DNA of 32,000 nt from contig JAHBWD010000035.1 of NCBI GenBank assembly GCA_019637175.1, forward strand, positions 5,341 to 37,340, given 5' to 3'. A model generated the notes under the pieces. The model was not told the origin of the DNA. It saw only the letters and a list, made by a program, of their open reading frames with translations, and made no database searches. The stretch is from Labilithrix sp. Lineage in GTDB: Bacteria; Myxococcota_A; Polyangia; Polyangiales; Polyangiaceae. Shown here piece by piece: positions 2,517-23,621 of this stretch; the stretch's first letter is position 1; the number at the start of each line of letters is the position of its first letter. The position numbers and the translations under genes are program-made.

Positions 2517-3542
<1,026 letters not shown>

Positions 3543-3562
3543 GCTCGTCTCCTTCTCGCTGC

Positions 3563-5170
3563 TCACCGAGGGCTCTCCGAAGGCGGAGACTGCACGACGC
3601 GGGTGGGCGCGCGGCGTGCTGGTTTGATCTTTCCGAGCGGGCGCTCGACGCACTCGCCGCGATCGAGGACACGCGCGCCGATCGCTTCGCTGACGTGGTG
3701 CGAGAGGATCGACGTCGCCCCCTCGAGGTCCGCGAGCGTGCGCGCGATGCGCACGACCTTGCCGTAGGCGCGCGCGGAGAGCCCGATCTTCTCGACCGCG
3801 CTCGAGAGGAGCTGCATCGAGGCCTCGTCGAGCGCGCACACGCGCTCGGCGTCGGGCCGCGAGAGGTGAGCGTTGATCGCGCACGAAGTCTCGCCCGACT
3901 CGTAGCGCGCGCGCTGCGCTGCCCGCGCGCGCTCGACGCGCCGGCGCACCTCGGCGCTCGACTCGCCGGCGGCGCCGCGCTGGAGAGACGCGATGTCGAC
4001 CGGCGGCAAGACGACGTGGATGTCGAGCCGATCGAGCAGCGGCCCGCTGAGGCGCGAGCGATACTGGCGGATCTTCTCCGGCTTGCAGAGGCAGCGCTGC
4101 GTGCCGTCGCTCTGGCGGCCGCACGGACACGGGTTCGTCGCGCCGATGAGCATCGGACGCGCAGGAAACGTGACGGAGATCTGCGCGCGCGAGACGGTGA
4201 CGTGCCCGTCTTCGAGAGGCTGCCGCAGCGCCTCGAGCGTGCCGCGGCGGAACTCGGAGAGCTCGTCGAGGAAGAGGACGCCCTGGTGCGCGAGGCTGAT
4301 CTCGCCGGGGCGCGCCTGATCGCCGCCGCCGACGAGCGCGACGTCGCTCGCGGTATGGTGCGGCGCGCGGAACGGACGCTCGCCCATGCGCTTCGCGAGC
4401 CCATGCAGCCCCGCGATGCTGTGGATCGCGAGCACCTCGAGCGCTTCTTCGTGCGCGAGCGGCGGCAGGATGCCGGGCAGGCGCCGCGCGAGCATCGTCT
4501 TGCCCGCGCCGGGTGGCCCCATGAAGAGGAGGTTGTGGCCGCCGGCCGCGGCGACCTCGAGCGCGCGACGCGCGCTCGATTGACCGCGCACGTCCGAGAG
4601 ATCCTCGTGCGCGAAGTACGAGATCTCGCGGCGACGCCGGGTCGCGAGCGGCAGCGTCTCTTCGCCGGCGAGCGCGCTCACGAGCTCGGCGAGCGTCTCG
4701 GCGACCGCCACGTCGACGCCGTCGACGAGCGCCGCCTCGTCACGGTTGGCCGCCGGGACGACCGCGCGCGTGACGCCTCGATCACGCGCGCCGACGAGGT
4801 GCGCGACGACGCCGCGCATCGGATGCAGCGCGCCGTTGAGCGACAGCTCGCCGAGGAAGAGCAGCTCGCCCAGCGCGCCCTCCGGCAGCCTGCCGAGCGC
4901 GACGAGCGTCGCGACGGCGATCGCGAGATCGAACGCGCTCCCGCGCTTCTTCACGTCCGCCGGCGCGAGGTTGACGACGAGGCGGCACTCGCTGATGTCG
5001 ACGCCGAGCTGCGCGAGCGCGCTCTTGACCCGAACGCGGCTCTCGCGCACCGCGACCTCCGCGAGGCCGACGAGCTCGAACGAAGGAACGCCGCGCGAGG
5101 CCTGAACCTCGACGCGAACGGGGTGCGCCGCGAGGCCGACGAGGACCGCGCTGTGTGCCGTGGCGAGCAT
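3563..5170 (-). CDS. comM: YifB/ComM family Mg-chelatase-like AAA+ ATPase
   Basis: 535 aa. N-terminal Lon-like domain ([12 protein letters not shown]...VEV), Walker A GPPGAGKT, Cys cluster CPCG...C.C, and a C-terminal MCM/chelatase-like region. Confidence 0.85.
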
Positions 5171-14757: not shown

Positions 14758-14831
14758 GGGACGCTAGCTCAATCGGAACGAGCACCGGGCTTTTACCCCG
14801 AGGGATGAGGGTTCGACTCCCTCGCGTCCCA
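14758..14831 (+). tRNA. tRNA-Lys(TTT)
   Basis: Acceptor gggacgc/gcgtccc. D stem gctc/gagc. Anticodon loop ctTTTac. T-loop ttcgact. No encoded CCA. Confidence 0.8.
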
Positions 14832-14887
14832 CAGCCTCCGTCCGTCTTCTCTCTCTCGTTCACGCGCTCTCACGAGCGCGCGATCGC

Positions 14888-14961
14888 GGGTCCGTAGCGC
14901 AACCGGCAAGCGCACTCGACTCTTAATCGAGGTGGTGAGGGTTCGAGTCCCTCCGGACCTA
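14888..14961 (+). tRNA. tRNA-Lys(CTT)
   Basis: Acceptor gggtccg/cggacct. Anticodon stem ctcga/tcgag, loop ctCTTaa. T-loop ttcgagt. Confidence 0.8.
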
Positions 14962-14984
14962 CGGGCGACGTCCGTCGCCGACAC

Positions 14985-15059
14985 TCCGGGATCGTCTAGC
15001 TGGCAGGACACTGGCCTCTGAACCCAGAAACACAGGTTCGAATCCTGTGCCCGGAACCA
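14985..15059 (+). tRNA. tRNA-Gln(CTG)
   Basis: Acceptor tccggga/gcccgga (7-66 mismatch). Loop ctCTGaa. T-loop ttcgaat. CCA encoded. Confidence 0.65.
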
Positions 15060-15163
15060 AGGCTCTCCTCTTTCGAGGGAGCCCTCGCTCTCTGAAAACT
15101 TGGCGCCAATCGACTCGTCCGCGCGCGCGGAGCGCGAGCTTCACGCTCGCGGGCGAGTCTCAT

Positions 15164-15236
15164 TCCAGCGAAGCCGAATGGTCAGGCAGCCGGCTGTTAA
15201 CCGGTCCCTTCGAAGGTTCGATTCCTTCCGCTGGAG
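15164..15236 (+). tRNA. tRNA-Asn(GTT)
   Basis: Acceptor tccagcg/cgctgga. Anticodon stem gccgg/ccggt, loop ctGTTaa. T-loop ttcgatt. Confidence 0.75.
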
Positions 15237-15239
15237 CTC

Positions 15240-15371
15240 TCGCCCTCTCGGCAGAGGCCCTACACGCACCTGGTGATGCTGGTTCGACTCCAGCCCACGG
15301 CTTCGGCCGCGGTCGTCCAACGGCAGGACCCCCGAATGTCAATCGGAACGACGGCTTCTCCACTCGGGCGA
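15240..15371 (+). ncRNA. structured module A: permuted tRNA-like RNA (candidate Y RNA)
   Basis: Closing stem tcgccc/gggcga. Box ccctacacgca at 15258-15268. The order is then: T-arm gctgg-ttcgact-ccagc; acceptor 3' strand ccacggc; ttcg loop; acceptor 5' strand gccgcgg; D-arm gtcc/ggac; hairpin with loop atGTCaa. Confidence 0.5.
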
Positions 15372-15376
15372 AAACT

Positions 15377-15447
15377 GCCCATGTAACTCGATGGTCGAGC
15401 ACCCGCCTCGTACGCGGTGTGAGCCGGTTCGACTCCGGACGTGGGCT
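15377..15447 (+). tRNA. tRNA-Thr(CGT)
   Basis: Acceptor gcccatg/cgtgggc. Loop ctCGTac. T-loop ttcgact. Confidence 0.7.
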
Positions 15448-15452
15448 CTCGT

Positions 15453-15618
15453 TTCATCCACCCGAACAGACCCTACACGCAAAAACAAAGTTGGTTCGAC
15501 TCCAACCGCCTACCCCGACGGCCCTGCAAGGCCGTCTCGCATCACGGTGGGCGTAGCCTAACGGTAAGGCAATCGTTTATTGGACGATAATCCCACCCGG
15601 TTTGCTCACTCGGATGGA
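15453..15618 (+). ncRNA. structured module B: permuted tRNA-like RNA (candidate Y RNA)
   Basis: Closing stem ttcatcc/ggatgga. Box ccctacacgca. T-arm gttgg-ttcgact-ccaac. An 8-bp acceptor-like stem cgcctacc/ggtgggcg is capped by a 31-nt insert containing its own hairpin. D-arm gcc/ggc. Hairpin atcgt-ttattgg-acgat. Confidence 0.5.
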
Positions 15619-15796
15619 ACGCATCCTCTCCCCGCCGCGTACGGCGGGTCCCCTTTCAATCCGGCCGCTATAACGTTGCGCCTCGCGCGCAGCCCCGCCG
15701 TCGGATCCTGCCCCGCCGCGAGCTTCGTCGGCGCGGGTCTCGTCTCATCAGGAGGCTGGCGCGTGAGCGCAAGCCGCGCCGCCTCCGACCTCTTCC

Positions 15797-15868
15797 GCCC
15801 ACGCAGCTCGAGAGCCGAGCGTCCTGGCTTGTACCCAGGAAGATCTGGTGCGACTCCAGACGTGGGCT
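15797..15868 (+). tRNA. tRNA-Thr(TGT), non-canonical elbow
   Basis: Acceptor gcccacg/cgtgggc. Anticodon stem cctgg/ccagg, loop ctTGTac. T-loop tgcgact (G55). D-loop gagagcc lacks GG. Confidence 0.6.
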
Positions 15869-15883
15869 CCGCCGAAATCCTCT

Positions 15884-15958
15884 ACCCCCGTCATCTAGCG
15901 GCAAGGAGCTCCGTCTTTCAATCGGAGGGCGTCGGTTCGAATCCGATCGGGGGTGCCA
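15884..15958 (+). tRNA. tRNA-Glu(TTC)
   Basis: Acceptor acccccg/cgggggt. Loop ctTTCaa. T-loop ttcgaat. CCA encoded. Weak D stem. Confidence 0.7.
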
Positions 15959-16034
15959 GGGCTGTGAGCTGGTCGCAGGATAGCGTCTGCCTGAAGAGCA
16001 GAAGAACGTGGTGCAAGCCCACGACAGCCCACCA
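15959..16034 (+). tRNA. tRNA-Phe(GAA)
   Basis: Starts directly after the preceding CCA. Acceptor gggctgt/acagccc. Anticodon stem tctgc/gcaga, loop ctGAAga. T-loop tgcaagc (G55). CCA encoded. Confidence 0.7.
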
Positions 16035-16116
16035 TCGAAAGCTCGATATCGTCGATATCGAAGAACGACGAACATCGCACTTGCAAAGTGAGGTAGCGAG
16101 ACACATATGAATGTAC

Positions 16117-16189
16117 GGTGGCGTTACTCGTCTAGTGACGAGGACTGGCCGTGACCCAGTGGAGGCGGGTGCAATCCCCGTACGTCACC
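16117..16189 (+). tRNA. tRNA-His(GTG) with G-1, C33 and G55
   Basis: G-1 lies opposite C73. Acceptor gtggcgt/acgtcac. Anticodon stem actgg/ccagt, loop ccGTGac. T-loop tgcaatc. D-loop tctagtga. Confidence 0.7.
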
Positions 16190-16326
16190 CCTCAGCCGCC
16201 GAGCTTCGTTCGGCGACTTCGTCCCTCTCTCGTGGGAGCTTCGCTCCCCTCATCGGCGAAGCCGATGAGCCTCCTCTCCTTCGCCTGCGGCGAAACCGAG
16301 CTTCGCTCGGCAGGAGAGGCATCCAG

Positions 16327-16398
16327 GTCCTCGTGGCCGAGCGGATAGGCAGCGGTTTCCTAAACCGCCACAGGCAGGTTCGAGTCCTGCCGGGGACG
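16327..16398 (+). tRNA. tRNA-Arg(CCT)
   Basis: Acceptor gtcctcg/cggggac. Anticodon stem gcggt/accgc, loop ttCCTaa. T-loop ttcgagt. Confidence 0.75.
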
Positions 16399-16423
16399 CG
16401 ACACGCAACGAAACGATTCTCAC

Positions 16424-16495
16424 GCCTCGTGATGCGCCCGGCGGCGCAACCCCACTGTCTATGGGACGAGACGGGTTCGACTCCCGTACGAGGCG
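16424..16495 (+). tRNA. tRNA-Asp(GTC)
   Basis: Acceptor gcctcgt/acgaggc. D stem tgcg/cgca. Loop ctGTCta. T-loop ttcgact. Confidence 0.75.
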
Positions 16496-16501
16496 CTGCA
16501 T

Positions 16502-16575
16502 GCGTCGCAGAGTCATGGTGACCGGCCGAGCCTCCAAAACTCGGAGAGAGGGTTCGATTCCTTCGCGACGTGCCA
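16502..16575 (+). tRNA. tRNA-Trp(CCA)
   Basis: Acceptor gcgtcgc/gcgacgt. Loop ctCCAaa with a 31-39 C-A mismatch. T-loop ttcgatt. CCA encoded. Poor D-arm. Confidence 0.65.
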
Positions 16576-16588
16576 GAGGTGACCGTTC

Positions 16589-16792
16589 ATGACGACCTGC
16601 ACCTTCTGCTCGGGCCCCGCGCATCCCTCCACGGGCTGCGTGTACGGACCGAGAACCCTCGCGTGCCGCGCGTGCACCGTCCGCTTCTGGACGTGGCTCC
16701 GCCAGCACGTGAACAAGGCTCCTCGCCGCCGCCCTGGCCGCGTGGTCCCTTCCCTCACGTTCTACGAGGCCGCCACGAAGTGGCGAGCCTAG
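16589..16792 (+). CDS. small Cys-rich (zinc-ribbon-like) hypothetical protein
   Basis: 67 aa. CxxC...C...CxxC pattern (CTFC, C17, CRAC). GAGGTG Shine-Dalgarno-like sequence about 8 nt upstream of the ATG. Sits between tRNA-Trp and tRNA-Ala. Confidence 0.55.
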   Translation: MTTCTFCSGPAHPSTGCVYGPRTLACRACTVRFWTWLRQHVNKAPRRRPGRVVPSLTFYEAATKWRA

Positions 16793-16816
16793 GCCGACGG
16801 ACCTCCGCGGCCATCT

Positions 16817-16890
16817 GGGGCGGTATTTCAATAGGAGAATTCTGCTCTCGCACAGCAGGGATCGGGGTGCAATTCCCCGTCGCTCCACCA
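16817..16890 (+). tRNA. tRNA-Ala(CGC)
   Basis: Acceptor ggggcgg/tcgctcc with G3-U70. Anticodon stem ctgct/agcag, loop ctCGCac. T-loop tgcaatt (G55). CCA encoded. Confidence 0.7.
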
Positions 16891-16902
16891 GACATCACGA
16901 AT

Positions 16903-16975
16903 GGGGTCGTAGCTCAGCCAGGAGAGCATCTCGATGGCATCGAGAAGGTTGCCGGTGCAATTCCGGTCGACTCCA
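16903..16975 (+). tRNA. tRNA-Ala(GGC)
   Basis: Acceptor ggggtcg/cgactcc with G3-U70. Anticodon stem tctcg/cgaga, loop atGGCat. T-loop tgcaatt (G55). Confidence 0.75.
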
Positions 16976-17003
16976 CGAAGTACATATTCACGAATACCCA
17001 TAC

Positions 17004-17078
17004 GCTGGCATCGTCCAAGAGTGAGGACCTCAGTCTTCCAAACTGATGATGAGGGTGCGAATCCCTCTGCCCGCTCCA
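17004..17078 (+). tRNA. tRNA-Gly(TCC)
   Basis: Acceptor gctggca/tgcccgc (3-70 mismatch). D stem gtcc/ggac with loop aagagtga. Loop ctTCCaa. T-loop tgcgaat (G55). U73 and CCA present. Confidence 0.7.
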
Positions 17079-17231
17079 CTCTCCTCTTCCCCTGCTCTTC
17101 TGGCCCCGGCGCGCTCCGCGCGACGGTTCGCCGAAGGCGAAAGGGGGGAGGACTCCACGCGCAGCGTGGAGGGGGGACGCAGTCCCCCACGAGACAGAAG
17201 GAAACGAGAGCGCGCAGCGCTCTCGCTTTTC

Positions 17232-17302
17232 GAGCCGATTCTCTGAGAGGTCCGTGGTCTGCAAAACCGCGTATGAGGGTTTGATTCCCTCTCGGCTCTC
17301 CA
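17232..17302 (+). tRNA. tRNA-Cys(GCA)
   Basis: Acceptor gagccga/tcggctc. Anticodon stem gtggt/accgc, loop ctGCAaa. T-loop tttgatt (U56). U73 and CCA present. Weak D-arm. Confidence 0.65.
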
Positions 17303-17322
17303 AAAAGGAAATCATGACGAGC

Positions 17323-17395
17323 GGATCACGACGGGATGGTTACCCTGGGCTCTCTGATAAGGAGCCTGCACCGTGTTCGATTCACGGGTGATCCA
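17323..17395 (+). tRNA. tRNA-Ile(GAT)
   Basis: Acceptor ggatcac/gtgatcc. D stem cggg/cctg. Loop ctGATaa. T-loop ttcgatt. Confidence 0.8.
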
Positions 17396-17415
17396 CGACG
17401 AGCTCCACGAGAGAT

Positions 17416-17488
17416 GCGGCGCTGGCGGTCTAGTGACTGCGCTTGCTCGACAAGCAGGAACAGGCGGGTGCGATCCCCGCGCGCCGTA
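17416..17488 (+). tRNA. tRNA-Val(GAC) with C33 and G55
   Basis: Acceptor gcggcgc/gcgccgt. D stem gcgg/ctgc with loop tctagtga. Anticodon stem cttgc/gcagg, loop tcGACaa. T-loop tgcgatc. Confidence 0.65.
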
Positions 17489-17495
17489 CCGAGAG

Positions 17496-17567
17496 CTGGG
17501 CATAGTTCAGAGGCCAGATCACTCCCCTCGGAAGGGAGAGACGGAGGTTCGAGTCCTCCTGCCCAGA
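17496..17567 (+). tRNA. tRNA-Pro(CGG)
   Basis: C1-G72 acceptor ctgggca/tgcccag. Anticodon stem ctccc/gggag, loop ctCGGaa. T-loop ttcgagt. A73. Confidence 0.8.
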
Positions 17568-17577
17568 CTGATTTCAC

Positions 17578-17650
17578 GCCGATGTAGCCCAATAGGCAGA
17601 GGTACCCGTCTCAGAAACGGGGGGTGAGGGTTCGAATCCCTCCTTCGGCA
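17578..17650 (+). tRNA. class-I (short variable loop) tRNA with Leu anticodon CAG
   Basis: Acceptor gccgatg/cttcggc (6-67 mismatch). D-arm gcccaataggcagagg. Anticodon stem cccgt/acggg, loop ctCAGaa. Only 4-5 nt variable region. T-loop ttcgaat. A73. Confidence 0.55.
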
Positions 17651-17666
17651 CTACGTCTCTCGAAAT

Positions 17667-17750
17667 GTCACCGTGGTGGAACGGCATACACACCAGCTTG
17701 AGGTGCTGGGCTCCCTACGGAGTGTGAGGGTTCGAATCCCTCCGGTGACA
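17667..17750 (+). tRNA. tRNA-Leu(GAG), class II
   Basis: Acceptor gtcaccg/cggtgac. Anticodon stem ccagc/gctgg, loop ttGAGgt. Long variable arm ctcc-ctac-ggag. T-loop ttcgaat. Confidence 0.8.
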
Positions 17751-17843
17751 CTACTGGCGCGCGCATCCCCGAAACGACTCTTCTCTGCTGATCCCGAACC
17801 TTGCTCCTCGAAGGAGATGAAAGTGAAAAAGCGAAGGTGACCC

Positions 17844-18377
17844 ATGCAAACGCTGATGCTGACCCCGTGGATGGCGCCGCACAAGATCATCTCGTGGCAA
17901 CGCGCCGTCGTTCTCGCGTACCTCGGCAAGGTCGAGGTCATCGAGACTTGGGACTGCGATCTCCGCGGCCCCAGCGTCTCGATGAAGGCGCCGTCCGTCG
18001 TGCGTCTCACGAAGGGGTCGGTCTCGACGAAGCAGTCGGTGCGCTTCTCGCGCATCAACGTCTTCACGCGTGACAAGTTCCGCTGCCAGTACTGCGGCGA
18101 GCGGAAGCCCATCAAGCAACTGAACTACGACCACGTGATCCCGCGCGTGCGCGGCGGAAAGACGGTCTGGGAGAACATCGTCACTTCCTGCTACGCGTGC
18201 AACGATCGCAAGGGGAGCCGCACTCCCGAGGAGGCCGGCATGAAGCTGCTCCGCAAGCCGCTCAAGCCGGACACCCTCCCCGTGGTGCCGCCGATCCGCC
18301 TCGACGAGGGTGACCTGCCCGAGCAATGGGAGCCGTACTGCGGCGACCTGGCTCGGCTGATGTCCCTCTCGGCGTGA
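17844..18377 (+). CDS. HNH endonuclease (small McrA-like family)
   Basis: 177 aa. CQYCG...YDHVIPRVRGGKTVWENIVTSCYACNDRK, an HNH/ββα-Me motif with two CxxC pairs. AAGGTGA Shine-Dalgarno upstream of the ATG. Confidence 0.85.
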   Translation: MQTLMLTPWMAPHKIISWQRAVVLAYLGKVEVIETWDCDLRGPSVSMKAPSVVRLTKGSVSTKQSVRFSRINVFTRDKFRCQYCGERKPIKQLNYDHVIPRVRGGKTVWENIVTSCYACNDRKGSRTPEEAGMKLLRKPLKPDTLPVVPPIRLDEGDLPEQWEPYCGDLARLMSLSA

Positions 18378-18460
18378 AAGCGCTGCGCCCGTCATCCGAC
18401 GTGCGCTCCCGCGTCCTGGCCCAAGACGAAATAAACTGGGCCTCCTATTCTTCAAACGAT

Positions 18461-18535
18461 CAGGGCGTAGCTTAGCCTGGCAAAAGCGTCAGTCTGGGGG
18501 ACTGAAGAGCGCAGGTTCGAATCCTGCCGTCCTGA
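18461..18535 (+). tRNA. tRNA-Pro(GGG)
   Basis: Acceptor cagggcg/cgtcctg. D stem gctt/aagc. Anticodon stem tcagt/actga, loop ctGGGgg. T-loop ttcgaat. Confidence 0.8.
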
Positions 18536-18548
18536 CTACGTCGATATC

Positions 18549-18631
18549 GGAAGGTACATCCGCGAGGCGCGGAGATCGCCTGGAACGCGATTCGCACCGC
18601 CAGGTGCGAGGTTCGAGTCCTCTGCCTTCCT
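18549..18631 (+). tRNA. tRNA-Ser(GGA), class II
   Basis: Acceptor ggaaggt/gccttcc. Anticodon stem atcgc/gcgat, loop ctGGAac. Variable arm cacc-gcca-ggtg. T-loop ttcgagt. Confidence 0.7.
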
Positions 18632-18656
18632 CTGCTCTCGACTGCATCCTCGAAAC

Positions 18657-18741
18657 GGAAGAGAAACTGGCTGGGAGCCAGGACTGCCTCGAAAGCAGTA
18701 CGCACCTTCACGGGTGTGGGGTTCGAGACCTCTCTCTTCCT
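18657..18741 (+). tRNA. tRNA-Ser(CGA), class II
   Basis: Acceptor ggaagag/ctcttcc. D stem ctgg/ccag. Anticodon stem actgc/gcagt, loop ctCGAaa. Long variable arm. T-loop ttcgaga. Confidence 0.7.
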
Positions 18742-18758
18742 CTCTCGCCTCTCTTTTT

Positions 18759-18831
18759 CTCCTTGCTGGTGGCTCCAGGCATTGGTCTACGAAGCCGATT
18801 TTCCCAGGTTCGATTCCTGGCAGGGAGACCA
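18759..18831 (+). pseudogene. degenerate tRNA-like element (anticodon arm not foldable)
   Basis: Good acceptor ctccttg/cagggag, T-arm ccagg-ttcgatt-cctgg and CCA. The anticodon arm pairs poorly and the variable region is only 2-3 nt. Confidence 0.4.
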
Positions 18832-18838
18832 ACGATTT

Positions 18839-18973
18839 CGATCGCCCATCCCGAACGTGCCTACAAGCAACCGTCCTGAAAAGACGGGGAACACGAAACG
18901 TCCGAGCCCTCGAAGCGTCGAGCGCTCCGACGTTTCGTGATCCCTCCCAACGCACGATCGACTCGGGCGATCG
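18839..18973 (+). ncRNA. structured module C (box-containing, no T-arm)
   Basis: 9-bp closing stem cgatcgccc/gggcgatcg. atcccgaac plus box cctacaagcaa. Anticodon-arm-like hairpin ccgtc-ctgaaaa-gacgg. A 15-bp hairpin at 18892-18939. Confidence 0.45.
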
Positions 18974-18980
18974 CAAAAAT

Positions 18981-19053
18981 ACCTTCGTCCTGGCGGAATC
19001 CAGGCGCGAGCCTCCGAAGCTCGTTGCTCCCGGTTCGACTCCGGGCGGAGGTG
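18981..19053 (+). tRNA. tRNA-Arg(CCG)
   Basis: Acceptor accttcg/cggaggt. D stem ctgg/ccag with a 6-nt loop. Anticodon stem cgagc/gctcg, loop ctCCGaa. T-loop ttcgact. Confidence 0.7.
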
Positions 19054-19057
19054 CTGA

Positions 19058-19132
19058 CGCAGCGTGGGGGAGGAGCGACCCCGCGAGGTTCATGTCCTCG
19101 AGACGCCGGTGCGACTCCGGCCGCTGCTACCA
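19058..19132 (+). tRNA. tRNA-Met(CAT), 1-72 mismatch (initiator-like?)
   Basis: Acceptor cgcagcg/cgctgct with C1 opposite U72. D stem gggg/cccc. Anticodon stem cgagg/cctcg, loop ttCATgt. T-loop tgcgact (G55). CCA encoded. Confidence 0.65.
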
Positions 19133-19134
19133 AG

Positions 19135-19262
19135 GTCATCCAAATACGCCGAGCCTACACGCAACTTGATTCGTCCAATGGATAGGACATCAGCCTCCTA
19201 AGCTGAGCGTCTGGGTTCGAGTCCCAGATCAACCCCCCTCGCGCTCGTCGATCTCGGATGAC
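19135..19262 (+). ncRNA. structured module D: box plus normal-order tRNA-Arg(CCT)-like core (candidate Y RNA)
   Basis: Perfect 7-bp closing stem gtcatcc/ggatgac. Box cctacacgcaa abuts position 3 of a tRNA-like core at 19164-19235 (D stem gtcc/ggac, loop ctCCTaa, T-arm ctggg-ttcgagt-cccag). The core retains only 5 acceptor base pairs. Confidence 0.5.
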
Positions 19263-19270
19263 CTTCCTAT

Positions 19271-19347
19271 GTTTCCGTCGTCTAGACGGCCAAGGACACC
19301 CGCCTCTCAAGTGGGTAACACGGGTTCGAATCCCGTCGGAAACGCCA
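19271..19347 (+). tRNA. tRNA-Glu(CTC)
   Basis: Acceptor gtttccg/cggaaac. Anticodon stem cccgc/gtggg, loop ctCTCaa. T-loop ttcgaat. CCA encoded. Confidence 0.8.
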
Positions 19348-19392
19348 AACCCCAACATCCACGCCCACCACTGGCCCAGAAAGGAGAGAACC

Positions 19393-20982
19393 ATGGCAAA
19401 CAAGCAGCTATTCGCGAGCCCGCGACCGGACGCCGTCAACGAAGCCGGCGGCTTGGCCTACGCGTTCTCTCCCGAGCACGCGCTCGCCCAGTACGCCGCG
19501 ACCGGCACGTTCCACGGGACGTTCTACGCCAGCGACAAAGAGCAGCTCGATCGCGTGTCCGCGTTTGCCAGCGCGTGCTCGCCCGAGCTCGTCGCCAAGA
19601 CCGCCGTCTACTGTCGCGAGCGCGGCAGGATGAAGGACATGCCGGCGTTCCTCGTCGCCCACCTCGCGGCCCGCGACACCGCGATGATGAGCCGGGTGTT
19701 CGCTCGGGTCATCGACGACGGCGTCATGCTCCGCAACTTCGTGCAGATCGTCCGCTCGGGCGTCACCGGCCGAAAGTCGTTCGGCTCGGCCCCCAAGCGC
19801 GCGCTCCGTGCGTGGTTCGCGAGCCGCTCGCCCGACGCGATTTTTCGTCAGTCCATCGGTCAGAGCCCGTCCATGTCGGACGTCATCAAGATGGTTCGCC
19901 CTCCCCCGCGGAACGACAAGGGCGAAGCCGATGCCGTTCGTGAGGCCCTCTACGGCTACCTCATCGGAAAGAACGTGGATCCGGACAAGCTCCCCGCGCT
20001 CGCGCGCGCCTTCGAGGCGTGGAAGCGCAGGACCGGCGGCCTGCCCGACGTGCCCTTCGAGATGCTCACCTCGCTCCCCTTGAGCGCGGAAGACTGGAAG
20101 GCGCTCGCGCGTCGGATGACGACGAATCAGCTCCGGATCAACCTCAACACGCTCCTCCGTCACGGCGTCCTCGACGACCCCGAGATGGTGGACTCCGTGG
20201 CGGCCCGCCTGTCGGACCGCGAGGCGATCCTCCGGGCGCGCATGATGCCGTTCCAGCTCCTCGCCGCGTATCGCGGCGTCGAGGCGCGGATGCCGACGCG
20301 CATCGTCACGGCGATCGCGACGGCGCTCGAGCACGCGGTGTCGAACGTCCCCGAGCTCGTCGGGCGCGTCGTGCTCTGCCCCGACGTGTCGGGATCGATG
20401 CAGTCGCCCGTGACGGGTCACCGCGGGAGCGCGACCACGAAGGTGCGCTGCGTCGACGTCGCGGCCCTCGTGACCGCGGCGATCCTCCGGAAGAACCCGG
20501 GCTCGTCGGTCATTCCGTTCTCCGACGACGTGGTCCCGATGACGAAGCCTCTCGATCCGGGCGGCTCGATCGTCGAGAACGCGGAGATCCTCGCGAGCCT
20601 CCCGAGCGGCGGCACCGCTTGCTCGGCGCCGCTCCGCTGGCTCAACGCGAACGGGAACGCGCCCGACGTCGTCGTCTTCGTCTCGGACAACCAGTCGTGG
20701 TCGGACTTCCGACACCCTTCGCGATCCGCCACGAGCGGCACCGCGATGGCGGAGGAGTGGCAACGCCTTCGGGGCAGGAACCCGAACGCCAAGCTGATCC
20801 TCGTCGACGTCCAGCCCTACGGCACGACGCAGAGCACCTCGCGCGACGCCAAGGGCGAGCGCGACGACGTGCTCGACGTCGGCGGGTTCTCCGACGCGGT
20901 CTTCGACGTCGTCGCGTCGTTCACGCGCGGCGAGCTCGGCGGAGACACGTGGCTTCGCGCGATCGAATCGATCGCGCTCTAG
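19393..20982 (+). CDS. rsr: Ro60-related TROVE-domain / vWA protein (Rsr)
   Basis: 529 aa from MANKQLFAS. The N-terminus is TROVE-like (NEAGGLAYAFSPEHALAQYAATGTFHGTFY). C-terminal vWA MIDAS motif CPDVSGSM. AAGGAGAG Shine-Dalgarno at 19381-19388. Confidence 0.85.
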   Translation: MANKQLFASPRPDAVNEAGGLAYAFSPEHALAQYAATGTFHGTFYASDKEQLDRVSAFASACSPELVAKTAVYCRERGRMKDMPAFLVAHLAARDTAMMSRVFARVIDDGVMLRNFVQIVRSGVTGRKSFGSAPKRALRAWFASRSPDAIFRQSIGQSPSMSDVIKMVRPPPRNDKGEADAVREALYGYLIGKNVDPDKLPALARAFEAWKRRTGGLPDVPFEMLTSLPLSAEDWKALARRMTTNQLRINLNTLLRHGVLDDPEMVDSVAARLSDREAILRARMMPFQLLAAYRGVEARMPTRIVTAIATALEHAVSNVPELVGRVVLCPDVSGSMQSPVTGHRGSATTKVRCVDVAALVTAAILRKNPGSSVIPFSDDVVPMTKPLDPGGSIVENAEILASLPSGGTACSAPLRWLNANGNAPDVVVFVSDNQSWSDFRHPSRSATSGTAMAEEWQRLRGRNPNAKLILVDVQPYGTTQSTSRDAKGERDDVLDVGGFSDAVFDVVASFTRGELGGDTWLRAIESIAL

Positions 20983-21061
20983 CGATCGAGACAACGCGGC
21001 AAATGCCCGCGAGGGTTACATCCTCGGGAAAACCACCTTCGCGACCTTCGTTGCCGCCCTT

Positions 21062-21117
21062 GCTCCTCCTCACGAAAGGTCTTCACGGGAGCTCATTGAG
21101 GAGGAGCCATTCTTTTT
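21062..21117 (+). terminator. hairpin plus T-run downstream of rsr
   Basis: 11-bp stem gctcctcctca/tgaggaggagc with a 24-nt loop, followed by cattcttttt. The next tRNA starts 2 nt later. Confidence 0.6.
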
Positions 21118-21118
21118 C

Positions 21119-21191
21119 GCCGTCCACGCCCAGAGAGCGGGGCACCTCACTGGTAGCGAGGACAAGGAGGGTGCGAGTCCCTCGGACGGCT
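21119..21191 (+). tRNA. tRNA-Thr(GGT)
   Basis: Acceptor gccgtcc/ggacggc. D stem gccc/gggc with loop agagagcg. Loop ctGGTag. T-loop tgcgagt (G55). Confidence 0.7.
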
Positions 21192-21202
21192 CGAATCGTT
21201 TT

Positions 21203-21276
21203 GCGGTGATAGTTCAAGAGTAGAACCTGAGCACGCCACGCTCGAAATCCGGGTGCGATTCCCGGTCACCGCTCCA
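21203..21276 (+). tRNA. tRNA-Gly(GCC) with C33 and G55
   Basis: Acceptor gcggtga/tcaccgc. D stem gttc/gaac with loop aagagta. Anticodon stem tgagc/gctcg, loop acGCCac. T-loop tgcgatt. U73 and CCA present. Confidence 0.65.
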
Positions 21277-21339
21277 GCGCCGAGTCCCCTGCCGTTCACC
21301 GGAGAAGGTGTCGTCGGGGGGCCACGCGCTTCCACTCTT

Positions 21340-21412
21340 CGCTGCGCTCCTGGGCAGGACGACGGGCTTCATATGCCTGCGCGCGACGGCTCGACTCCGT
21401 CCGCAGCGACCA
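21340..21412 (+). tRNA. tRNA-Met/Ile2(CAT), aberrant D-arm
   Basis: Acceptor cgctgcg/cgcagcg. Anticodon stem cgggc/gcctg, loop ttCATat. T-loop ctcgact (C54). CCA encoded. The D region is only 14 nt. Confidence 0.55.
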
Positions 21413-21418
21413 CGACAT

Positions 21419-21490
21419 ACCGGAGTGTTCCAAGGGCAGGATCGGCGGCTTTGAACCGCTCGAGTGGGGGTTCGAATCCCTCCTCCGGTG
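21419..21490 (+). tRNA. tRNA-Gln(TTG)
   Basis: Acceptor accggag/ctccggt. Anticodon stem ggcgg/ccgct, loop ctTTGaa. T-loop ttcgaat. Confidence 0.75.
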
Positions 21491-21497
21491 CGAACGC

Positions 21498-21573
21498 GCG
21501 GGGCGCGCCGTCTGGCGACGGCATCTGCATCACAAGCAGCGCAAGGAGAGTTCGATCCTCTCGCCCCGTACCA
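21498..21573 (+). tRNA. tRNA-Val(CAC)
   Basis: Acceptor gcggggc/gccccgt. D stem gccg/cggc. Loop atCACaa. T-loop ttcgatc. CCA encoded. Confidence 0.75.
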
Positions 21574-21595
21574 CGAATGGAAGATTGGTCTTCGA

Positions 21596-21671
21596 GTCGA
21601 CGTAGCCCAACGGCAGAGGCAGCACGCTCAAACCGTGCGTGATGGGGGTTCGAATCCCTCGGTCGACACCA
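21596..21671 (+). tRNA. class-I (short variable loop) tRNA with Leu anticodon CAA
   Basis: Acceptor gtcgacg/ggtcgac (7-66 mismatch). D-arm gcccaacggcagaggc. Anticodon stem gcacg/cgtgc, loop ctCAAac. 5-nt variable loop. T-loop ttcgaat. A73 and CCA present. Confidence 0.55.
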
Positions 21672-21813
21672 TGGGTTCGAATCCCATGAAGCACCTCGCG
21701 AGGACGCCGGCGCGTCACGCGGAAGCCTCGAGCAGCGGCCTGTTACGCCGCACACGCTCGAGGGCCTTCTCCGCGCGACGTCCGCTCGTCGTTTCCGCAG
21801 CGAGATCCGCTTG

Positions 21814-21956
21814 CTGGTTGCCAGTCGCGCGACTGAAACTCGTGCACGTGTTTGACGCAGGTTCGAATCCTGTCGCCCGCACCGCTCGCTCGCGCGAGCC
21901 CTCCGAAATCATGCGGGCGTAGCTCAGCTAGGTAGAGCAACAGACTGTTAATCTGA
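21814..21956 (+). ncRNA. module E: third permuted tRNA-like locus
   Basis: The order is: hairpin cgcga-ctgaaac-tcgtg; T-arm gcagg-ttcgaat-cctgt; 3' strand cgcccgc; 32-nt cap; perfectly complementary 5' strand gcgggcg; D-arm gctc/gagc; hairpin acaga-ctgttaa-tctga. Confidence 0.4.
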
Positions 21957-22215
21957 AAACGAAGTCGGCGAAGGAAGTCACCCCCCTCTCGAGAGAGAGG
22001 CGCGCTCCCGTCCCGCGATCGAAGCCGCCCTGCCGCAGCTCCGCGGTCGTCCCTCGAAGACCACCGCGAAGCGCCGGCCGACGCCCCTCGATCGCTCGCC
22101 GGCGAGCACGTCGCCCGAACGTGATGGCTTCGAGGCGTTCACGTTCTTGGGTGCCTTCCTTCGAAGGCTCTCCTCCTTCTCTTCTCTTCTCATCTCCTCC
22201 AAGAGGCCACCCACC

Positions 22216-23352
22216 ATGATGAAGATTCTGTTCGTGGATCTCGACGAGCGCGTCGTGGTCCTCCGTCGTGGCCTCCCGGTTCGTGCCCTCGGACCTGGTC
22301 GCCACATCCTGTGGGGCTTCGGCATCACCGAGCGTCGGTGGTCGACCGCGCCCCTCGTGTTCGAGATGCAGCCCGCGCTCCGCGCCGCGCTGCCGCCCGA
22401 CTCTTTCCACGAGATCACGCTCACGCCGAGCGAGCGCGCGATCCTCTGGCGCGACGGCCGTCCCAAGGTCTTCCTCGGCCCCGGCGTCCACCGGTACTGG
22501 GAGGTCGACGACCCGCTCCACGCGCAGGTCATGTCGGTCCACGACGAGATGCCCGAGCTCTCCGCCGAGCTCGCGTCGATCATCCCGCGCGACCAGTACG
22601 TCGAGGTCACCGTGCAAGAGCACCAGCGCGGCCTCCTCCACGTGAAGGGCAAGCTCGCCCGGACGCTCGCGCCCGGTCGCTACACCTTCTGGTCGACGCG
22701 CGAGTCGCCCGTCGCCGTCCAGAGCGTCGACATGCGCGTCGTGCAAGCCACGATCGCGGGCCAGGAGCTCATGACCAAGGACAAGGTCACGCTCCGGCTC
22801 ACCCTCACGGTCGAGTACGCCGTCGAGGATCCGGCCGTCGCCACCCACGCGGTGGAGAACGTCCGCGACGCGATCTACCTGCTCGTCCAGCTCGCCAGCC
22901 GCGAGTTCGTCGCCGGCGTGACGCTCGACGACCTGCTCGCCGGCCGCGACGCGATGACGAAGTACCTCGAGGACGACGTCGCTGGAAAGGCGCGTCGCTT
23001 CGGCGTGCGCGTCGAGCGCGTCGGCGTGAAGGACGTCGTGCTCCCGGGCGAGATGAAGACGCTCCTCAACAAGGTCATCGAGGCCGAGAAGGAAGCGGCC
23101 GCGAACGTCATCCTCCGTCGTGAGGAGACGGCCGCGACGCGCTCTCTGGCGAACACCGCCAAGCTCATGGCCGAGCAGCCGCTGCTCCTGCGGCTGAAGG
23201 AGCTCGACTCGCTCAAGGAGATGGCGGCGAAGATCCACGAGATCAAGCTCGTGGCCTTCGCTCCGGGCATGAACGCGTCGGGCATGAACGCGCTCGTGCC
23301 CTCGGGCTTCCTCGGCCCTGGCCCGGAGGCCTCCTCCAAGGGAGAGGCGTGA
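22216..23352 (+). CDS. SPFH/band-7 (slipin-like) domain protein
   Basis: 378 aa from MMKILFVDL. Central SPFH pattern (TKDKVTLRLTLTVEY...GVRVERVGVKDVVLP) followed by a coiled-coil-like tail. AAGAGG lies upstream. Confidence 0.8.
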   Translation: MMKILFVDLDERVVVLRRGLPVRALGPGRHILWGFGITERRWSTAPLVFEMQPALRAALPPDSFHEITLTPSERAILWRDGRPKVFLGPGVHRYWEVDDPLHAQVMSVHDEMPELSAELASIIPRDQYVEVTVQEHQRGLLHVKGKLARTLAPGRYTFWSTRESPVAVQSVDMRVVQATIAGQELMTKDKVTLRLTLTVEYAVEDPAVATHAVENVRDAIYLLVQLASREFVAGVTLDDLLAGRDAMTKYLEDDVAGKARRFGVRVERVGVKDVVLPGEMKTLLNKVIEAEKEAAANVILRREETAATRSLANTAKLMAEQPLLLRLKELDSLKEMAAKIHEIKLVAFAPGMNASGMNALVPSGFLGPGPEASSKGEA

Positions 23353-23362
23353 CACGTGAACG

Positions 23363-23399
23363 GCCGGGATCTTCTGAAAAGAAAATCCCGGCGTTCTTT
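23363..23399 (+). terminator. hairpin plus T-rich tail after the SPFH gene
   Basis: gccgggat...atcccggc stem followed by gttcttt. Confidence 0.55.
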
Positions 23400-23533
23400 G
23401 GAAGTCAGACCGCAGAGGTTGCGGGCCCGGTTGCTACCCGGTGCGTACCCGAGTCGTTCGGGTATGGCGTTCGAGTCGCCTGATTTCCGCTCGATTTCGA
23501 CGTTCGGCGCCAAGTCTTCGGAGACGCTCGACT

Positions 23534-23621
23534 GGATCGGACGCGGTACTGGCTGGCCGCACGTGGCTGTAACCCACGTTCTTTCACGACACTGGGGGTT
23601 CGAATCCCTCCCGATCCACCA
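23534..23621 (+). tRNA. tRNA-Tyr(GTA), class II
   Basis: Acceptor ggatcgg/ccgatcc. D stem gcgg/ccgc. Anticodon stem cgtgg/ccacg, loop ctGTAac. Long variable region. T-loop ttcgaat. A73 and CCA present. Confidence 0.85.

Follow-up and report, generated by a model that had tools for sequence, protein, structure and literature searches.

The window analysed here, a 32,000-nt stretch of DNA from the soil myxobacterium Labilithrix sp. (contig JAHBWD010000035.1), carries a long array of about 37 tRNA genes on a single strand, which is broken up by an HNH endonuclease gene, a Ro60/Rsr gene, Y-RNA-like elements and an SPFH gene (Table 1). With these genes placed in the same orientation within 8.86 kb, the locus is a tRNA array in the sense of the published definition, which asks for at least 20 tRNA genes at a density of at least two per kb (PMC4758250). 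Our subject is a group of 10 of the ~37 array tRNAs, covering seven amino-acid identities, in which the T-loop carries G in place of U at position 55. An earlier inspection of the letters alone (hereafter the sequence-only reading) had listed ten tRNAs with a TGCRA T-loop (R, purine), and all of them are present on the forward strand at the coordinates it gave, although the start of tRNA-His at 16117 is correct only when the encoded G-1 is counted. In each of the ten the seven-nucleotide loop, TGC(A/G)ANN, is closed by a T stem with 5/5 canonical pairs, and in the alignments to the Rfam tRNA model that were shown the G lies opposite U55 in 4/4 cases. Since the five-pair stem and the retained C56, R57 and A58 fix the register, the G is indeed position 55, and the wrong loop registration which the sequence-only reading had itself considered does not apply.

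Table 1. Features of the tRNA array and their coordinates in the window. T arms are written as stem-loop-stem; bit scores are from the Rfam tRNA model or from our covariance model R1, unless another model is named.
Feature	Position	Strand	Remarks
tRNA-Thr(TGT)	15797..15869	+	T arm TCTGG-TGCGACT-CCAGA, G55 at 15850; D-loop GAGAGCC, read as A18 G19; 49.8 bits (R1)
tRNA-Phe(GAA)	15959..16031	+	T arm CGTGG-TGCAAGC-CCACG, G55 at 16013; D-loop GTCGCAGGA, read as A18 G19 G20 A21; Rfam 44.0 bits
tRNA-His(GTG)	16117..16190	+	T arm GCGGG-TGCAATC-CCCGT, G55 at 16171; D-loop TCTAGTGA; encoded G-1 opposite C73; C33
tRNA-Ala(CGC)	16817..16887	+	T arm CGGGG-TGCAATT-CCCCG, G55 at 16869; D-loop AATAGGA; G3:U70; Rfam 49.5 bits
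tRNA-Ala(GGC)	16903..16975	+	T arm GCCGG-TGCAATT-CCGGT, G55 at 16957; D-loop AGCCAGGA; G3:U70; Rfam 57.8 bits
tRNA-Gly(TCC)	17004..17075	+	T arm GAGGG-TGCGAAT-CCCTC, G55 at 17057; D-loop AAGAGTGA; Rfam 54.7 bits
tRNA-Val(GAC)	17416..17488	+	T arm GCGGG-TGCGATC-CCCGC, G55 at 17470; D-loop TCTAGTGA
tRNA-Met(CAT), initiator-like	19058..19129	+	T arm GCCGG-TGCGACT-CCGGC, G55 at 19111; D-loop AGGAGCGA; Rfam 43.8 bits
tRNA-Thr(GGT)	21119..21191	+	T arm GAGGG-TGCGAGT-CCCTC, G55 at 21173; D-loop AGAGAGCG; 41.7 bits (R1)
tRNA-Gly(GCC)	21203..21273	+	T arm CCGGG-TGCGATT-CCCGG, G55 at 21255; D-loop AAGAGTA; Rfam 49.1 bits
tRNA-Cys(GCA)	17232..17302	+	T-loop TTTGATT (U56 for C56); minimal D arm, loop GAG; Rfam 29.4 bits
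tRNA-Met(CAT), elongator or Ile2-like	21340..21412	+	T-loop CTCGACT (C54 for U54); 38.1 bits (R1)
Long tRNA gene array	14758..23621	+	~37 tRNA genes, single strand; ARAGORN, Rfam, own covariance model R1, Pfam
HNH endonuclease gene	17844..18377	+	within the array, directly after Leu tRNAs; Pfam HNH_5 and HNH
Ro60/Rsr orthologue (TROVE plus vWA)	19393..20982	+	within the array; Pfam; 100% identical to a Labilithrix sp. metagenome-assembled genome protein
Y-RNA-like (YrlA-like) candidate	21829..21971	+	Rfam RF02553 41.8 bits, E = 1.2e-6, gathering score 69
Weaker second Y-RNA-like candidate	15252-15363		upstream of Ro60; RF02553 25.1 bits
SPFH/band-7 protein gene	22147..23352	+	Pfam Band_7; weak HflK-like NCBIfam match; likely start ATG 22218

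Pseudouridine 55 (Psi55) has been described as the most universally conserved tRNA modification, and in cytosolic tRNAs G18, G19, U55 and C56 count as quasi-invariant (PMC7912444). When these nucleotides were examined in the ten genes, G19 and C56 were present, while A stood for G18 and G for U55 in 10/10; the elbow thus changes from G18G19 to A18G19 and from U55 to G55, with G19-C56, U54-A58 and R57 retained. The sequence-only reading had noticed the D-loop change in part, as the lack of a GG dinucleotide in six loops, and these are exactly as it quoted them (GAGAGCC, TCTAGTGA twice, AAGAGTGA, AGAGAGCG and AAGAGTA). The association of this feature with G55 is significant, GG being missing from 6/10 G55 tRNAs and from 0/27 TTCRA tRNAs of the window (Fisher p = 9e-5), all 27 of which contain it. 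However, loss of GG, true as it is of the letters, is not a fitting description, as the real change is G18 to A18 in 10/10 and not the loss of GG in 6/10. The four G55 tRNAs that do contain GG (Phe, both Ala and initiator-like Met) all hold an A-G in a register compatible with A18-G19, their loops reading ..CAGGA, ..TAGGA, ..CCAGGA and AGGAGCGA. In such AGGA loops A18-G19-G20-A21 is the sensible register, since placing GG at 18-19 leaves a single nucleotide for positions 20 and 21. The assignment of A18, which we make from the comparison of orthologues and from this need for positions 20 and 21 after G19, would then hold for all ten.

To see the two positions in a wider sample we gathered 80 related genomic loci with an alignment of Ro60 orthologues as anchor. 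As observed in the orthologue comparisons, pairs of G55 and U55 genes which are otherwise mostly identical differ at 18 and 55 together (His, Val-GAC, Gly-GCC, Gly-TCC, Gln-TTG, Leu-CAA, Lys-CTT, Cys and Glu-TTC), and the D arms of all G55 tRNAs have A-G where those of U55 tRNAs have G-G. The U55 orthologues of tRNA-His (L007, L013) combine the D-loop TCTGGCGA with the T-loop TTCGATC, where the window gene has TCTAGTGA with TGCAA; those of Val(GAC) (L007, L005) have TCTGGTGA against the same TCTAGTGA of the G55 version; those of Gly(TCC) (L010, L013) have AAAGGTA and AATGGCA; and for Gly(GCC) the U55 D-loop AACGGTA corresponds to AACAGTA or AAGAGTA in the G55 versions. Thr(TGT) is U55 with GG in L011 and C54-U55 (CTCGACT) with GG in L004, while the G55 gene for Phe(GAA) was found in L001 as well.

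The same coupling emerged from alignments which carry no expectation of it. When 139 array tRNAs were aligned by MAFFT, blind to structure, and mutual information was computed between column pairs, the top 16 pairs were Watson-Crick helix pairs and the 17th was 18/55 (mutual information 0.67), the strongest non-helix pair. The table for these two columns held 47 A/G and 68 G/U rows, and its off-diagonal cells were misaligned rows reading CT-AGTG or CT-GGTG. Because the Rfam tRNA model reports just six of the ten G55 genes, a covariance model of our own was used for alignment. We built one from 49 U55 tRNAs only and aligned 280 array tRNAs to it; having U55 tRNAs as its sole training set, it cannot favour A at 18. 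Columns 18 and 19 read naively from this model ("GC/GT/GA") were dropped, as the model tends to place the single elbow G of G55 tRNAs in column 18. For the same reason we scored statistics that are free of register, namely the length of the G run and the base 5' of it. Within the Polyangia arrays, A followed by a single G at the elbow was found in 41/58 G55 and 0/188 U55 tRNAs (Fisher p = 2e-33), A directly 5' of the elbow G run in 55/58 and 29/188 (p = 1.5e-29), and GG at the elbow in 15/58 and 186/188 (p = 1e-32), these p-values overstating independence as related sequences (orthologues) were counted. A hold-out set of 80 metagenomic loci, gathered after the other tests, gave GG in 399/402 U55 tRNAs, while among its G55 tRNAs (n = 89) there were 62 with AG only and seven with AGG, most of the remaining 14 having ..AGCGG at the edge of the stem. 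Hardly any intermediates (A18/U55 or G18/G55) were seen, which speaks for continuing selection on the contact, whichever state it is in, and not for decay. Beyond position 18 no column co-varied with position 55, apart from an enrichment of A57 (36% of G55 and 5% of U55 tRNAs). The coupling is seen alike in orthologues, the structure-blind alignment, the U55-only model and the metagenomic set, and together with the kept helices, purine 37 and identity elements described below these strongly support the proposal of the sequence-only reading that this is a co-varying alternative elbow rather than random decay.

The G55 genes also have other features that would be expected of working tRNAs. In the ARAGORN parses they show the canonical architecture, in which the acceptor stem has 7 bp and the anticodon and T stems have 5 bp each and close 7-nt loops, and minimum free energy folding returned a cloverleaf for 8/10. 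Helix quality is the same in both classes of array tRNAs (16.2 canonical pairs of 17 scored for G55 and 16.1 for U55), and a purine is found at position 37 in 100% of G55 and 95% of U55 tRNAs. Identity elements, read off the sequence, are kept: G-1:C73 in tRNA-His, G3:U70 in both tRNA-Ala and, in the initiator-like tRNA-Met, a mismatch at 1-72 (C1xU72) and R11:Y24 (G11:C24), accompanied by G30-C40 and G31-C39. ARAGORN, with default or relaxed threshold, called 9/10 of the genes and model R1 added Thr(GGT), which was called by neither ARAGORN nor Rfam and whose minimum free energy fold is a cloverleaf; 6/10 exceed the Rfam gathering threshold of 29 bits. Tools in common use under-call G55 genes, 4/10 being missed by a tRNA finder, the Rfam tRNA model or both. 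The array lacks the anticodons Ala-UGC, Ser-UGA, Pro-UGG, Val-UAC, Leu-UAA/UAG and Arg-UCU, which implies further tRNA genes elsewhere in the genome. From these several missing U34 anticodons, and from the literature on long arrays (PMC8421152), the array tRNAs are presumably supernumerary.

Taken together, these observations make it most likely that the ten genes are intact, working and presumably supernumerary array tRNAs with an alternative A18-G55 elbow. Several observations weigh against this. The array tRNAs are somewhat degenerate, U33 being present in 78% of G55 and 82% of U55 tRNAs, and the tRNA-His of the window has C33 and not the near-universal U33. Thr-TGT, His, Val-GAC and Thr-GGT were unreported by the Rfam tRNA model at E <= 1. 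AGG loops leave the register of the D-loop ambiguous, the GG-trained model puts the single elbow G in column 18 in many G55 tRNAs, and the sequences counted are, as said, not independent.

In an ordinary tRNA, G18 is intercalated between 57 and 58 and forms a hydrogen bond to Psi55. We propose that in the rewired tRNAs A18 would occupy this intercalating place between 57 and 58, facing G55, while G19-C56 (Watson-Crick), U54-A58 (reverse-Hoogsteen) and purine 57, the remainder of the elbow, would be unchanged. The same combination of T-loop and intercalator is used by non-tRNA T-loops and by the tRNA-like structures of tymoviruses. A18-G55 would in this way act as a fold-preserving replacement of G18-Psi55, and both the L-shape and the flatness of the elbow's outer face are expected to be preserved. 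The consensus of non-tRNA T-loops is U-G-N-R-A and the gap between their positions 4 and 5 is filled almost exclusively by adenosine, while the tRNA-type UUAAA loop performs poorly in that context (bioRxiv 10.1101/2022.12.26.521914). The Rfam consensus of the tymovirus-type valine tRNA-like structure (RF00233) has CAGU in the D-loop and UGCAACU in the T-loop, which is the same A/G elbow. RF00233 aligns to four G55 tRNAs, that for His among them, with a best score of 30.3 bits against a gathering threshold of 40 and with the acceptor part of the model skipped. In turnip yellow mosaic virus the association of D- and T-loops was described as nearly identical to that of tRNA (PMC4810234). In yeast tRNALeu the exchange of Psi55 for G alone is lethal and abolishes charging (PMC3488233), which explains why a change at 18 is needed and why G55 is seen only with a changed partner.

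The consequences for factors that read the elbow would be of two kinds. Psi55 is necessarily absent from G55 tRNAs, and with no U at position 55 they would be lost as substrates of TruB, so that on chemical grounds this part of the escape foreseen by the sequence-only reading would hold. Given the specificity of TrmH, 2'-O-methylation of position 18 (Gm18) is probably absent as well. The same reading had extended the escape, or a different engagement, to RNase P and T-box-like readers, and here we do not follow it: readers of the G19-C56 face should be unaffected by A18-G55, and escape from RNase P, the ribosome or T-boxes is not expected since G19-C56 is retained. T-boxes are no obvious issue in this phylum. 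It is the outer face of G19-C56 that serves as stacking surface for RNase P, the ribosome and T-boxes (PMC4810234). Recognition by factors that read the inside of the T-loop may be altered, and escape from an elbow- or T-loop-directed nuclease is possible. We would expect the rewired tRNAs to be still expressed, processed, charged and used, charging being expected as the identity elements are intact.

The G55 state is not a peculiarity of the window. It was found in 68/285 tRNAs of Ro60-linked arrays of Polyangia (L001, L003, L004, L005, L007, L008, L010, L011, L013), in one Pedosphaera metagenome-assembled genome (L021) and in one assigned to "Proteobacteria" (L024), and across arrays it spans 15 amino-acid identities. 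No G55 tRNA was seen among 278 in equally large Ro60-linked arrays of Acidobacteria (0/278) or among 67 in two phage arrays (0/67), and none in three sampled phage tRNA arrays (Rctr197k, Tunturi_5, CcrRogue). Viral contigs have Ro60-linked arrays too (L081-L083); tRNA genes are present on each of the three that hold Ro60 (3/3), and two of low G+C content with Ro60 and tRNA arrays have one G55 tRNA each, that of L082 being Pro-TGG with the D-loop TGATAGTA and the T-loop TGCAACT. At least five tRNA genes with a well-formed T-loop were present in 30/80 of the genomic Ro60 loci, Polyangia, Acidobacteria and Verrucomicrobia among others. The state arose repeatedly; parsimony on a distance tree gave, as a rough count, about 30 changes between G55 and U55 against a mean of 62 for shuffled labels. 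It is also conserved, the same orthologue staying G55 even between arrays with no more than 60-80% identity of their Ro60 proteins, and it is biased with respect to identity (Gly-GCC 8/10 and Thr-GGT 5/5 of the genes parsed; Arg 0/27, Asn 0/9, Ile 0/8). Gene order is conserved among the L001, L003, L004 and L011 arrays, and the array looks vertically kept within Polyangia. Of the six tRNAs of the small Pedosphaera array four have TGC (G55) T-loops, the others TGGAA and AGCAA, and the standard TTC loop occurs in 0/6. Its tRNA-Leu(TAG) (2165-2241; D-loop CAACTACCAGA, T-loop TGGAAAT) reads A18 C19 with G55 G56, and here the 19-56 pair appears to have been swapped from G-C to C-G on top of A18/G55. 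This gene, like the tRNA-Cys of the window with its U56 and G-A-G mini D-loop, conforms to the same logic.

Why the elbow was rewired can be explained in several ways. Neutral compensatory drift, in which redundant tRNAs tolerate U55G or G18A and a second change restores the fold with no further functional meaning, is the first of these, and we regard it as a real possibility, if one that falls short of an even chance. Long arrays add redundant isodecoders, which are often poorly expressed (PMC8421152), and it agrees with drift that both states occur within one array, that orthologues flip either way and that helix quality is equal in both classes. On the other hand, the complete absence of A plus a single G from the 188 U55 tRNAs argues for continuous selection on the pair. 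Drift also fits poorly with the restriction to one lineage, when equally redundant Acidobacteria arrays and the two phage arrays have no such tRNA, with the strong identity bias, and with the stability of the state in orthologues from arrays with such divergent Ro60 proteins.

A second explanation is adaptive: the elbow would have become independent of, or invisible to, some factor that reads U55/Psi55 or G18, be it a dependence on TruB and TrmH or a toxin or nuclease cleaving in the T-loop, and the array would be a protected back-up set. The cut made by a CdiA-CT toxin of Burkholderia reportedly falls between T54 and Psi55 of tRNA, and evasion of anticodon nucleases is known for phage tRNAs. 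In accord with such evasion, the rewiring removes the two most conserved elbow modification sites (PMC7912444), it originated repeatedly and independently in one lineage, and such arrays are found on phage contigs and with a homing-type HNH gene common to a phage. However, the window revealed no candidate nuclease or toxin, PADLOC returning a generic HNH domain match only, and the rewiring affects just some one in four of the array tRNAs and several amino acids not at all, so that protection would be partial. The idea is attractive, but we hold it to be unlikely. In its more specific form, a Polyangia-specific pressure (a reader or cutter of the T-loop interior, or the dependence on Psi55 and Gm18) would have repeatedly driven A18-G55 and made part of the array a modification-independent, attack-proof and translation-competent back-up, which we consider a shade less likely still.

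It is very improbable that the G55 tRNAs are non-ribosomal aminoacyl donors, kept off EF-Tu and the ribosome and feeding tRNA-dependent biosynthesis as the staphylococcal tRNAGly does. Myxobacteria are rich in secondary metabolism, which would suit such a role. The non-proteogenic tRNAGly genes of staphylococci are typified by a TGC/TGT T-loop, and hence by the lack of Psi55 (PMC7826273), but these have U18U19 or C18U19 and thus no docked elbow (PMC4574755), while the array tRNAs keep G19-C56 and an intercalator. Furthermore, the many amino-acid identities affected, the initiator-like tRNAMet included, speak against it, as do the T stems of the G55 genes, which are the same G-C-rich stems as in their U55 neighbours (GAGGG/CCCTC is common to Gly-TCC, Thr-GGT, Lys and Leu). 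The reading as decaying pseudogenes or as a wrongly registered loop, which the four genes missed by Rfam, the C33 of tRNA-His and the clear tRNA fragments and the dubious Asn(ATT) call in the array might suggest, can practically be set aside, since five of five T-stem pairs with C56, R57 and A58 retained fix the register and since decay is incompatible with the 18-55 coupling, the conservation in orthologues and the compensated helices.

Beside the ten genes, whose intact tRNAs with an A18-G55 elbow we take as our preferred reading, two further T-loop variants which the sequence-only reading had mentioned, in tRNA-Cys and in the tRNA-Met at 21340, were found as it described them. The tRNA-Cys of the window may, judged by its letters, be an A19-U56 counterpart of G19-C56; its orthologue in L001 (1743-1811) has the T-loop TTTGACT and the D-loop GAGA. 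The CTCGA T-loop with C54 also occurs in a tRNA-Thr of the related array L004 (5393-5466), and non-tRNA T-loops also tolerate a C-A closing pair (bioRxiv 10.1101/2022.12.26.521914). We also observed that tRNA-Leu(CAG) and tRNA-Leu(CAA) (17578-17651 and 21596-21671) have a variable loop of 4-5 nt and a class I shape, as against the normal long arm of bacterial tRNALeu, which is kept in Leu(GAG) (17667-17751). Short variable loops in tRNA-Leu were seen as well at the related locus L021 (2165-4109).

The setting of the array is chromosomal in appearance. Overall G+C of the window is 69%, with 62-67% in the array against 70-74% in the flanks, and its protein genes, among them those for RecA, a ComM-like Mg-chelatase ATPase, a ketosynthase, a Ser/Thr kinase, an FGE-sulfatase and FIST, are of the kind usual on large chromosomes of myxobacteria. 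The longest RecA open reading frame (2517-4130, reverse strand) has about 200 additional N-terminal codons, its RecA domain beginning at residue 206; the extension may merely reflect an upstream start codon in a high-G+C frame. The HNH gene is 70% identical in nucleotides to the HNH gene behind the tRNA-Leu genes in the array of phage Rctr197k. HNH genes were located in L084 (11797-12345), L087 (11657-12193) and L088 (12867-13382), adjoining Ro60 in the latter two, and Pendulispora brunnea, a cultured organism with a complete genome, has kept Ro60 and the adjoining HNH gene with an array shrunk to two tRNAs. A DNA similarity search against phages gave no close relative of the array, matches being limited to single tRNAs and the HNH gene. 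Horizontally spreading long arrays (L-arrays) with an embedded homing endonuclease have been described (PMC8421152), and the present array fits that description. PADLOC and NCBIfam, applied to the array proteins, returned only the generic HNH domain, Rsr and the HflK-like SPFH protein, and a scan for promoters and terminators stayed at chance level. The stronger Y-RNA-like candidate, downstream of Ro60, keeps GG in the D-loop and has a T arm of canonical type, GGTTCGAATCC, with a TTCGA T-loop.

Some smaller elements of the array are recorded here for completeness. An open reading frame of 67 codons with two CxxC pairs, zinc-ribbon-like and with no family match, lies between tRNA-Trp and tRNA-Ala(CGC) (16589-16792); a gap of similar size is present at the same place in L001 and in none of L003, L004 and L011. 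Short G+C-rich hairpins with a CTTCG loop (GAGCTTCG...) are repeated in the tRNA spacers (15136, 15720, 16201, 16236 and 16298, forward strand), and GAGCTTCR was counted 14 times in the window against 5.6 expected, five forward-strand copies falling within 1.2 kb of the array. Fragments of tRNAs, lone T-arm hairpins (GGTTCGACTCC-type), the dubious "Asn(ATT)" call and the 5' half of a tRNA-Asn-like gene were noticed in the array, together at 15546-15638, 15270-15290, 15489-15507, 21672-21687 and 21913-22017; the 5' half probably belongs to the Y-RNA-like element.

Three components of this finding are already known, namely the A/G solution from viral tRNA-like structures and T-loops in general, G55 from staphylococcal cell-wall tRNAGly, and long tRNA arrays as such. 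In the open-access literature searched we found no description of a systematic, strictly coupled A18/G55 elbow in bona fide bacterial tRNA genes, and the accessible text of the long-array papers (PMC4758250, PMC8421152) and text searches gave no mention of it. What is added is that one lineage of bacterial tRNA arrays shows a second, strictly coupled solution for the 18-55 contact, in about a quarter of its genes, with 15 identities and many independent origins. It is a clean natural example of covariation at a tertiary, non-Watson-Crick contact, and it ties the tRNA elbow to the general rule for T-loops that a G at position 2 goes with an adenosine intercalator. These natural tRNAs, which are expected to be blind to TruB and probably to TrmH, would be useful for asking what Psi55 and Gm18 do, and should be of interest to specialists in tRNA structure and modification. 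If the rewiring is adaptive, it would point to a T-loop-directed factor in myxobacteria or their phages; and if the array did serve as a back-up set, we would have here the elbow counterpart of the escape by the anticodon loop in phage tRNAs.

Compared with known systems, the array of the window resembles the known long tRNA arrays in its many same-strand tRNA genes, its embedded HNH gene and its relatives on viral contigs, while the subgroup to which it belongs differs from known L-arrays by the linkage to Ro60 and Y RNA. With the non-proteogenic tRNAGly of Staphylococcus, the donor for cell-wall pentaglycine, the array tRNAs have G55 in common; however, the former has pyrimidines at 18 and 19 and no G19-C56, is confined to Gly and stays away from EF-Tu, whereas the array tRNAs have A18, G19 and C56 and many identities. 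tRNAPyl and many metazoan mitochondrial tRNAs also depart from G18G19 and T-Psi-C, but in these the D/T interaction is lost or shrunk, while in the array tRNAs it would be kept through a specific compensating pair. Non-tRNA T-loops (those of FMN and cobalamin riboswitches, RNase P, T-box stem I and rRNA) combine, like the G55 tRNAs, UGNRA with an adenosine intercalator, and they favour UGHAA just as the G55 tRNAs are enriched in A57; their intercalator comes from other receptor motifs, whereas in the G55 tRNAs it would come from the D-loop, beside G19-C56. The tymovirus tRNA-like structure has the same elbow letters as the G55 tRNAs, an A-G D-loop with a UGCAA T-loop, but it is an element of a viral 3' untranslated region with a pseudoknotted acceptor arm and a different connectivity, while the G55 genes are ordinary cloverleafs with paired acceptor stems.

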